A program made the position numbers and the translations under genes. A DNA stretch of 64,000 bases from Escherichia coli (lineage in GTDB: Bacteria > Pseudomonadota > Gammaproteobacteria > Enterobacterales > Enterobacteriaceae): NCBI RefSeq assembly GCF_041886205.1, contig NZ_CP169031.1; one strand, 5' to 3'. The notes under the pieces are model-generated. The model was not told the origin of the DNA. It made no database searches and saw only the letters and a program-made list of their open reading frames with translations. Positions 61,570 to 61,854 of this stretch are shown here, piece by piece (within the stretch, counting starts at the first letter, position 1; each line of letters opens with the position of its first letter).

Positions 61570-61854
61570 GTGGCAAGTATTGCAACAAAAGACAGCATTT
61601 GTTCGGGGCACGGAGGATTCCCATCCAGGCCTCCTGTAGAGAGTGAACCACTACTTAAAGTCAACGGAGTCGAAGTGTTAGTTGATGGTAAGCAATATGC
61701 ACAGCATACCGATGGAAACAGTACGCACGGTGGGCAAGCTATATCAACCAGGGCATGGTTTACCGTCAATGGTAAAGGGATCGTATGCGTTGGTGACCCT
61801 GTTTCATGCGGATCTACCGTAGCGTCCGGAGACGGCCTGGTTCAGGTAAGTTAG
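61570..61854 (+). CDS. PAAR-like small protein (GTG start, tentative)
   Basis: 94 aa; CSGHGG...VNGKGIVCVGDPVSCGSTVASGDG resembles PAAR-repeat spike-tip proteins. Confidence 0.45.
   Translation: MASIATKDSICSGHGGFPSRPPVESEPLLKVNGVEVLVDGKQYAQHTDGNSTHGGQAISTRAWFTVNGKGIVCVGDPVSCGSTVASGDGLVQVS

Follow-up and report, generated by a model that had tools for sequence, protein, structure and literature searches.

A P1-type upfC gene 9 kb from the spike gene of a P1-like phage-plasmid very probably encodes its PAAR-fold spike-tip protein

The window (the whole 64,000-nucleotide stretch of Escherichia coli DNA that was analyzed) carries a plus-strand cluster of five genes, upfC-upfB-ppfA-mlp-upfA, that begins with upfC and merely abuts the replication origin oriR. 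The genes for the baseplate hub and the central spike lie farther upstream on the same strand, and between them and upfC runs a series of opposite-strand genes. The features needed for the analysis are as follows.

47648-47666, plus strand: exact copy of the P1 late promoter LP26 (AAATGACTA-N4-TAGAAT)
50806-51822, plus strand: baseplate hub gene, P1 gene 6 by synteny, 338 aa, immediately before gene 5, with a short overlap between the two
[quoted passage not shown]
57957-60221, minus strand: dmt, mapped from the P1 annotation and followed by hrdC and uhr, also on the minus strand
61443-61472: Pdmt, adjoining Op68/Odmt, from the P1 annotation
61472-61488, minus strand: C1 repressor operator Op68/Odmt, coordinates from the P1 annotation and sequence read directly
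61561-61565, plus strand: Shine-Dalgarno-like GGTGA, 4 nt before the upfC GTG and the same in P1
61570-61854 (stop included), plus strand: upfC, GTG start, 94 aa, very probably a monomeric PAAR-fold spike-tip protein
61863-62651, plus strand: upfB, 262 aa, ATG preceded by AGGAG, co-linear with upfC
62664 or 62691-63113, plus strand: ppfA (P1 annotation), Rz/Rz1-like in several records
62947-63279, plus strand: mlp, overlapping ppfA out of frame, Rz/Rz1-like in several records
63291-63683, plus strand: upfA (P1 annotation)
63697-63717, plus strand: terminator-like hairpin and T-run that close the upfC-upfA cluster just before oriR

Positions 44000 to 64000 were 99.6% identical to CP057446.1, an E. 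coli plasmid of 95.7 kb, and at least 80% of this 20-kb stretch was present in one alignment in 401 plasmid records. The window as a whole was 96 to 99% identical to P1-family phages; over 61000-63500, P1, SJ46, RCS47, JL22, and vB_EcoM-Ro157c2YLVW were 96 to 98.8% identical to it. Because of the identities to the P1 family and to CP057446.1, we identify the window, on nucleotide similarity, as a P1-like phage-plasmid (Punavirus).

In the P1 annotation, Op68/Odmt controls the divergent uhr-hrdC-dmt operon, and it bounds the region upstream of upfC. On the other side, about 1.85 kb separates the upfC stop codon from the start of oriR, mapped from the P1 annotation. The initial annotation had placed the 94-codon ORF in a plasmid-maintenance neighborhood. 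The ORF does adjoin the replicon, but it is not a member of rep/par; rather, it heads the upfC-upfA cluster together with the gene for the tripod protein UpfB and the Rz/Rz1-like pair. The ppfA gene with the embedded, out-of-frame mlp resembles an Rz/Rz1-type spanin pair, and the genes in the equivalent position of a Serratia-type P1-like plasmid (L006) gave a weak DUF2570 match. If ppfA and mlp do encode spanins, a lysis function would share one cluster with the spike-tip and tripod genes. Two annotation differences were seen in the divergent operon. The mechanically called hrdC ORF (60218-61237) takes a TTG at 61237 as its start, which gives 339 aa and an overlap with uhr, while the P1 annotation uses an internal start equivalent to 61123 (301 aa), a version 99.7% identical to P1 HrdC. 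The uhr product is named "nucleoside triphosphate pyrophosphohydrolase" in RefSeq and had no Pfam match here.

The LP26 copy at 47648 heads the 26-25-7-24-6-5 operon, which includes the spike gene; the element at 47648-47666 (LP26/LPpmgL) is a bidirectional P1 late-promoter element. For upfC, no promoter is annotated in P1. The window was scanned with the LP26/LPpmgL -22 box as single template (up to two mismatches, followed by a TANNNT -10). The scan returned the copy at 47648, and no LP26-like late promoter was found on the plus strand from 61380 to 61570, a result that, coming from one template, is weak evidence of absence. A sigma-70 scan upstream of upfC returned only a weak TTAAAA-17-AATAAT at 61531-61559, and the number of matches was no higher than in shuffled sequence. 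This candidate was rejected, being too near the start codon to leave the Shine-Dalgarno sequence in the transcript. No plus-strand terminator was detected after gene 5. Read-through from gene 5 into upfC was likewise rejected, since it would need 9 kb of antisense transcription.

An ORF that is short, begins with a non-ATG codon, and overlaps ORFs on the opposite strand could be a chance reading frame or a miscalled gene. That reading is contradicted by 71 database homologs, mostly of 94 aa, with the same Met start and located on contigs of 80 to 120 kb. An alignment of 24 of these sequences had a common start and 12 invariant columns. Compared with P1, upfC differs at 14 nucleotides, of which 13 are synonymous third-position changes and one is nonsynonymous (S86A), a ratio that indicates strong purifying selection at the sequence level. 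Since the homologs are conserved in length and start and 13 of the 14 differences from P1 are synonymous, upfC is a genuine gene. The predicted fold is confident and the protein has a solved structure in P1, and we therefore regard the chance or miscalled ORF as refuted, with virtually no probability left to it. It is also the only PAAR-like gene found in the window: a tblastn search with the Serratia UpfC as query matched only 61570-61851, and the next-best match had an E value of 0.11.

UpfC contains both peptides quoted in the initial annotation, CSGHGG and VCVGDPVSCGSTVASGDG. The description of these as Gly/Cys-rich repeats was half right. Glycine is frequent (14 of 94 residues), but "Cys-rich repeats" is an overstatement because there are only 3 cysteines among the 94 residues and the sequence does not truly repeat, apart from degenerate turns of the PAAR-like kind.

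In the P1 reference record, this ORF is upfC (P1_gp066, YP_006534), with the remark that amino acids 10 to 93 are 31% identical to the phage T4 ORF5.4 product, and in RCS47 the gene is labeled "UpfC (PAAR motif)"; SJ46 and Ro157c2YLVW carry the upfC annotation as well. The window protein matched UpfC of the P1 baseplate (PDB 9vyi_A) with an E value of 1.7e-60 and a single substitution, and it matched phrog_281 with an E value of 2e-30. The near-identical sequence, with uhr/Op68 upstream and upfB downstream, places the gene in the P1 upfC orthologous group. When the single sequence was compared with Pfam PAAR_motif (PF05488), the match covered residues 51 to 91 only (E value, 8.5e-6) and its score of 26.4 bits fell marginally below the gathering score of 27; most of the homologs carry a precomputed PF05488 assignment. 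Among structures, the single sequence matched the T4-type tips 9f4b_BA and 5iv5_ZA/4ku0_D (E values of about 1e-7 to 5e-10) and VCA0105 (4jiv_D; 3.7e-4). A profile of 24 homologs extended these matches to T4 gp5.4 (2e-16), VCA0105 (1.2e-12), and c1882 (1.7e-8), and by sequence match UpfC thus falls in the PAAR family (PF05488/cd14671).

The predicted fold agreed with these matches. An AlphaFold2 model of UpfC built from the alignment was all-beta with a mean pLDDT of 96.8. In a Foldseek search of the PDB, the model matched 9VYI (TM score, 0.97), the KP1 tip (0.93), c1882 (0.91), VCA0105 (0.89), and T4 gp5.4 (0.86); the probability was 1.00 for each of 9VYI, 4KU0_D, 9F4B_BA, 4JIV_D, and 4JIW_D, and no further significant match was found in the PDB. 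The model and its Foldseek matches describe a cone of three beta-hairpins with pseudo-threefold symmetry. The initial annotation had proposed a PAAR-like spike tip; the sequence and fold searches strongly support that proposal.

Four residues, H14, H46, H53, and C80, are putative metal ligands. They were invariant in all 24 UpfC homologs and aligned in the profile comparison with the His/His/His/Cys of gp5.4 and VCA0105, so that the apical set of three His and one Cys is complete in UpfC. In gp5.4, this combination forms a tetrahedral metal site that holds Fe (PMC12407873). By analogy with T4 gp5.4 and the PAAR proteins of type VI secretion systems (T6SS), UpfC would bind a metal at this putative site. 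UpfC contains no literal P-A-A-R tetrapeptide, let alone three such motifs; reading the profile alignment suggested GFPSRP, QYAQH, and DPVSCG as degenerate equivalents. T4 gp5.4 is equally degenerate at its PAAR motifs yet is an accepted member of the family (PMC12407873), and the missing tetrapeptide therefore does not exclude UpfC from membership. Taken together, 61570-61854 is, with high confidence, a P1-type upfC encoding the PAAR-fold spike-tip protein of a P1-like phage-plasmid.

The partner of such a tip is the spike. The view that 51815-52447 encodes a spike of the gpV/gp5 type was confirmed: its product matched "Gp5" (PDB 9vzk_q; E value, 1.5e-136) and phrog_430, "baseplate hub subunit and tail lysozyme" (2e-50), and the gene is P1 gene 5. 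A Phage_base_V OB domain was also found in it (E value, 6.8e-4, under the Pfam cutoff). The gp5 of the window has one histidine only and no HxH motif, at its C terminus or elsewhere. According to a rule cited in PMC12407873, a spike that lacks HxH needs a separate tip protein; by this rule, gp5 therefore needs one.

In atomic models from cryo-electron microscopy (cryo-EM) of P1, trimeric gp5 is capped by monomeric UpfC, and the spike and tip are described as having "striking structural similarity" to T4 gp5-gp5.4 (PMC12810830). UpfB appears there as a novel "tripod" in which three trimers are attached to the distal tip of the spike (PMC12810830). An independent preprint made the same assignment for UpfC (bioRxiv 10.1101/2025.07.21.665459). 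UpfC is thus present in P1 virions by cryo-EM (PMC12810830; 9VYI), though it was undetected by LC-MS/MS of P1 virions (PMC9024508). The outcome that the initial annotation had named as a refutation, no PAAR-fold match and no such protein in virions, was not obtained. The alignment of UpfC with the T4 gp5.4 spike tip by HHpred was reported by Gonzales et al. in 2022, together with a upfC deletion that had no effect on P1 plaquing (PMC9024508). In a genome-wide CRISPRi screen, upfC, upfB, ppfA, mlp, and upfA were all nonessential (PMC10695390). A preprint on T4 gp5.4 states that gp5.4/UpfC is the sole T4-P1 pair of tail proteins detectable by BLAST and that the gene for a tip does not have to lie beside the gene for the spike. 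The role of upfC as spike tip is therefore already known: the gene was noted in 2004, its homology to T4 gp5.4 is given in the P1 genome annotation, HHpred and deletion results were published in 2022, and the protein was modeled in the 2025-2026 cryo-EM structures of the P1 baseplate.

These data suggest a model for the window protein. One UpfC monomer would cap the blunt end of the beta-helical spike that a gp5 trimer forms at the center of the baseplate, its three beta-hairpins tied at the apex by a metal ion with three His and one Cys as ligands. The metal-tied apex may sharpen and stabilize the point with which the phage first touches the host envelope as the sheath contracts, and UpfC would carry, or adjoin, the UpfB tripod encoded by the next gene. 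The reported phenotype of a upfC deletion in P1 concerns plaquing only; UpfC would be an accessory and not an essential assembly component, and a role in improving penetration is suggested by what is known of T4 gp5.4 and T6SS PAAR proteins. Lying 9 kb away from gene 5 and next to oriR, upfC occupies its normal place in the gene order of the P1 family.

The names under which UpfC homologs are deposited are varied. Many NCBI records call them "alanine racemase," phage JL22 has "ptp: putative phospholipase," PHROGs labels the family "PAAR motif of membrane proteins" and places it in the category "moron, auxiliary metabolic gene and host takeover," and JGI names include "Zn-binding protein involved in type VI secretion." The practical value of the present analysis is annotation hygiene, the proper label being "tail spike tip protein UpfC." The PHROG category and the JGI names, the resemblance of the fold to VCA0105 and c1882, and the lack of an identified late promoter upstream of upfC could be taken to mean that UpfC is a T6SS-type PAAR protein or a moron with a function in the lysogen, where it might, for instance, cap a VgrG of the host. 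In the solved P1 baseplate, however, UpfC sits on gp5 (PMC12810830), and the protein is nearer to the phage tips gp5.4 and KP1 than to T6SS PAAR proteins. It is, moreover, a minimal 94-aa PAAR protein with no cargo domain, and a P2-like metagenomic contig carries a 42%-identical homolog in the canonical arrangement, directly between gpV-like and gpW-like baseplate genes. A T6SS or moron role is extremely improbable on this evidence, and the virion spike tip is preferred.

The gene that follows upfC behaved differently from it. UpfB matched phrog_1559 over positions 1 to 262 of the 263 in the profile (E value, 1.4e-137) and was 91% identical to P1 UpfB. Between upfB and its P1 counterpart there were 24 nonsynonymous and 24 synonymous codon changes, mostly in residues 124 to 217. 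The corresponding DNA (62200-62500) was 80 to 89% identical to P1, with flanks at 97 to 100%, and the codon changes cluster around a Gly/Ser/Pro linker and the helix-rich part after it. Either relaxed or diversifying selection may lie behind this divergence. In the P1 RefSeq record, upfB begins at the ATG that corresponds to 61806, so that the product has 281 aa and the gene overlaps upfC by 49 nt. The ATG at 61863 is favored by the upstream AGGAG, by full coverage of phrog_1559, and by the Serratia-type homolog, which aligned from residue 1; the deposited P1 start probably lies 19 codons upstream of the true one.

The distance from the spike gene had been put at about 10 kb. The separation is real: upfC starts 9.1 kb after gene 5 ends. 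As mapped from P1, this gap (52447-61570) is occupied by dbn, ban, tci, tRNAs, dmt, hrdC, and uhr, all on the opposite strand. In the Serratia-type P1-like plasmid (L005/L006), which has a Rep3-type replicon unlike that of the window, about 7 kb separates a upfC homolog with 62% identity from the gene 6-gene 5 pair. This gap (L005, 2918-10001) contains rdgC, dam, a ParE-like toxin gene, an HTH gene, and umuDC, all co-oriented with gene 5. The rdgC and dam genes are common to the gaps of both lineages and are inverted relative to gene 5 between them. Directly after upfC, L005 encodes a 258-aa, full-length UpfB homolog (26% identity; E value, 7e-19), with a spanin-like pair next. A 226-aa ORF (9321-10001) ends where upfC begins in L005/L006; it had no match in the window and no Pfam match on record, and possibly the tip cluster has here one gene more.

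These comparisons bear on the further suggestion of the initial annotation that the tip is an exchangeable module. Nucleotide identity to P1 was 99 to 100% at 58000-61400, fell to 80 to 98% across 61500-62500, and then recovered. Because of this dip, 61500-62500 seems to have had a somewhat separate recombination history. Together with the equal numbers of nonsynonymous and synonymous changes in upfB, the dip would fit a tip cassette, upfC with upfB, that is swapped between phages and travels with the plasmid-maintenance region. Within the divergent patch, though, UpfC changed at one residue only, and it has no effector or extension domain. Compared with the distant Serratia-type plasmid, UpfC (62% identity) was the best conserved of the five proteins, ahead of gp5 (51%), HrdC (36%), gp6 (35%), and UpfB (26%). 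That plasmid keeps the upfC-upfB synteny and the separation from gene 5 despite its different replicon, and the 401 plasmid records hold most of the 20-kb segment in one aligned stretch. The order in which gene 5 and upfC are split is, furthermore, common to hundreds of P1-like plasmids. A mobile cassette is thus very unlikely, and the exchangeable module was not borne out. From these comparisons of sequence and gene order, we favor the view that upfC and upfB form a stable pair in which UpfB is the variable member.

The different gene contents of the two gaps suggest that the region between gene 5 and upfC is a site where accessory genes accumulate. A more speculative reading, to which we give a minor share of belief, is that the gap is an insertion hotspot that split an ancestral spike-tip pair. 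The two genes are neighbors in the P2-like contig, whereas some 9 kb of early and accessory genes under C1 control lie between them in the P1 lineage and another set, of 7 kb, in the Serratia-type relative. Such an insertion would mean that upfC-upfB is perhaps now transcribed independently of the LP26 late operon; the fast-evolving UpfB tripod, and not UpfC, may be the host-adapting part of the piercing apparatus.

The closest known system is P1 itself. UpfC of P1 (9VYI chain A) is the product of the same gene, and the window protein is identical to it at 93 of 94 residues, with S86A the one difference. The flanks are also those of P1 (divergent uhr-hrdC-dmt upstream, upfB-ppfA-mlp-upfA-oriR downstream), the distance to gene 5 is equal, and with 13 of 14 nucleotide differences silent, the two genes differ only as allelic variants. 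T4 gp5.4 (4KU0, 5IV5) is likewise a PAAR-fold tip, a monomer of about 95 aa that sits on the beta-helix of a gp5 trimer, with the same three His and one Cys ligands, a TM score of 0.86, and about 28 to 31% identity to UpfC, and both proteins are nonessential for plaquing. The two systems differ in that T4 gene 5.4 lies near gene 5 in a late cluster whereas upfC is 9 kb from its gene 5, in that T4 gp5 has a lysozyme domain that P1 gp5 lacks, and in that P1 but not T4 has a UpfB tripod at the tip. The T6SS proteins VCA0105 (4JIV) and c1882 (4JIW), of PF05488, have the cone of three hairpins in common with UpfC (TM scores of 0.89 to 0.91), as well as the same metal site, putative in UpfC, and the same mode of binding to a VgrG/gp5-type beta-helix. 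They are parts of a secretion machine, often with effectors, and are 16 to 23% identical to UpfC, which by contrast is a virion component without an extension domain. The tip of Klebsiella phage KP1/Lilla1 (9F4B chain BA) is a 97-aa protein of the T4 type with the same ligands as UpfC (TM score, 0.93; E value, 4.8e-10); it comes from a T4-like lytic phage, and its label "Phospholipase" is a misannotation.
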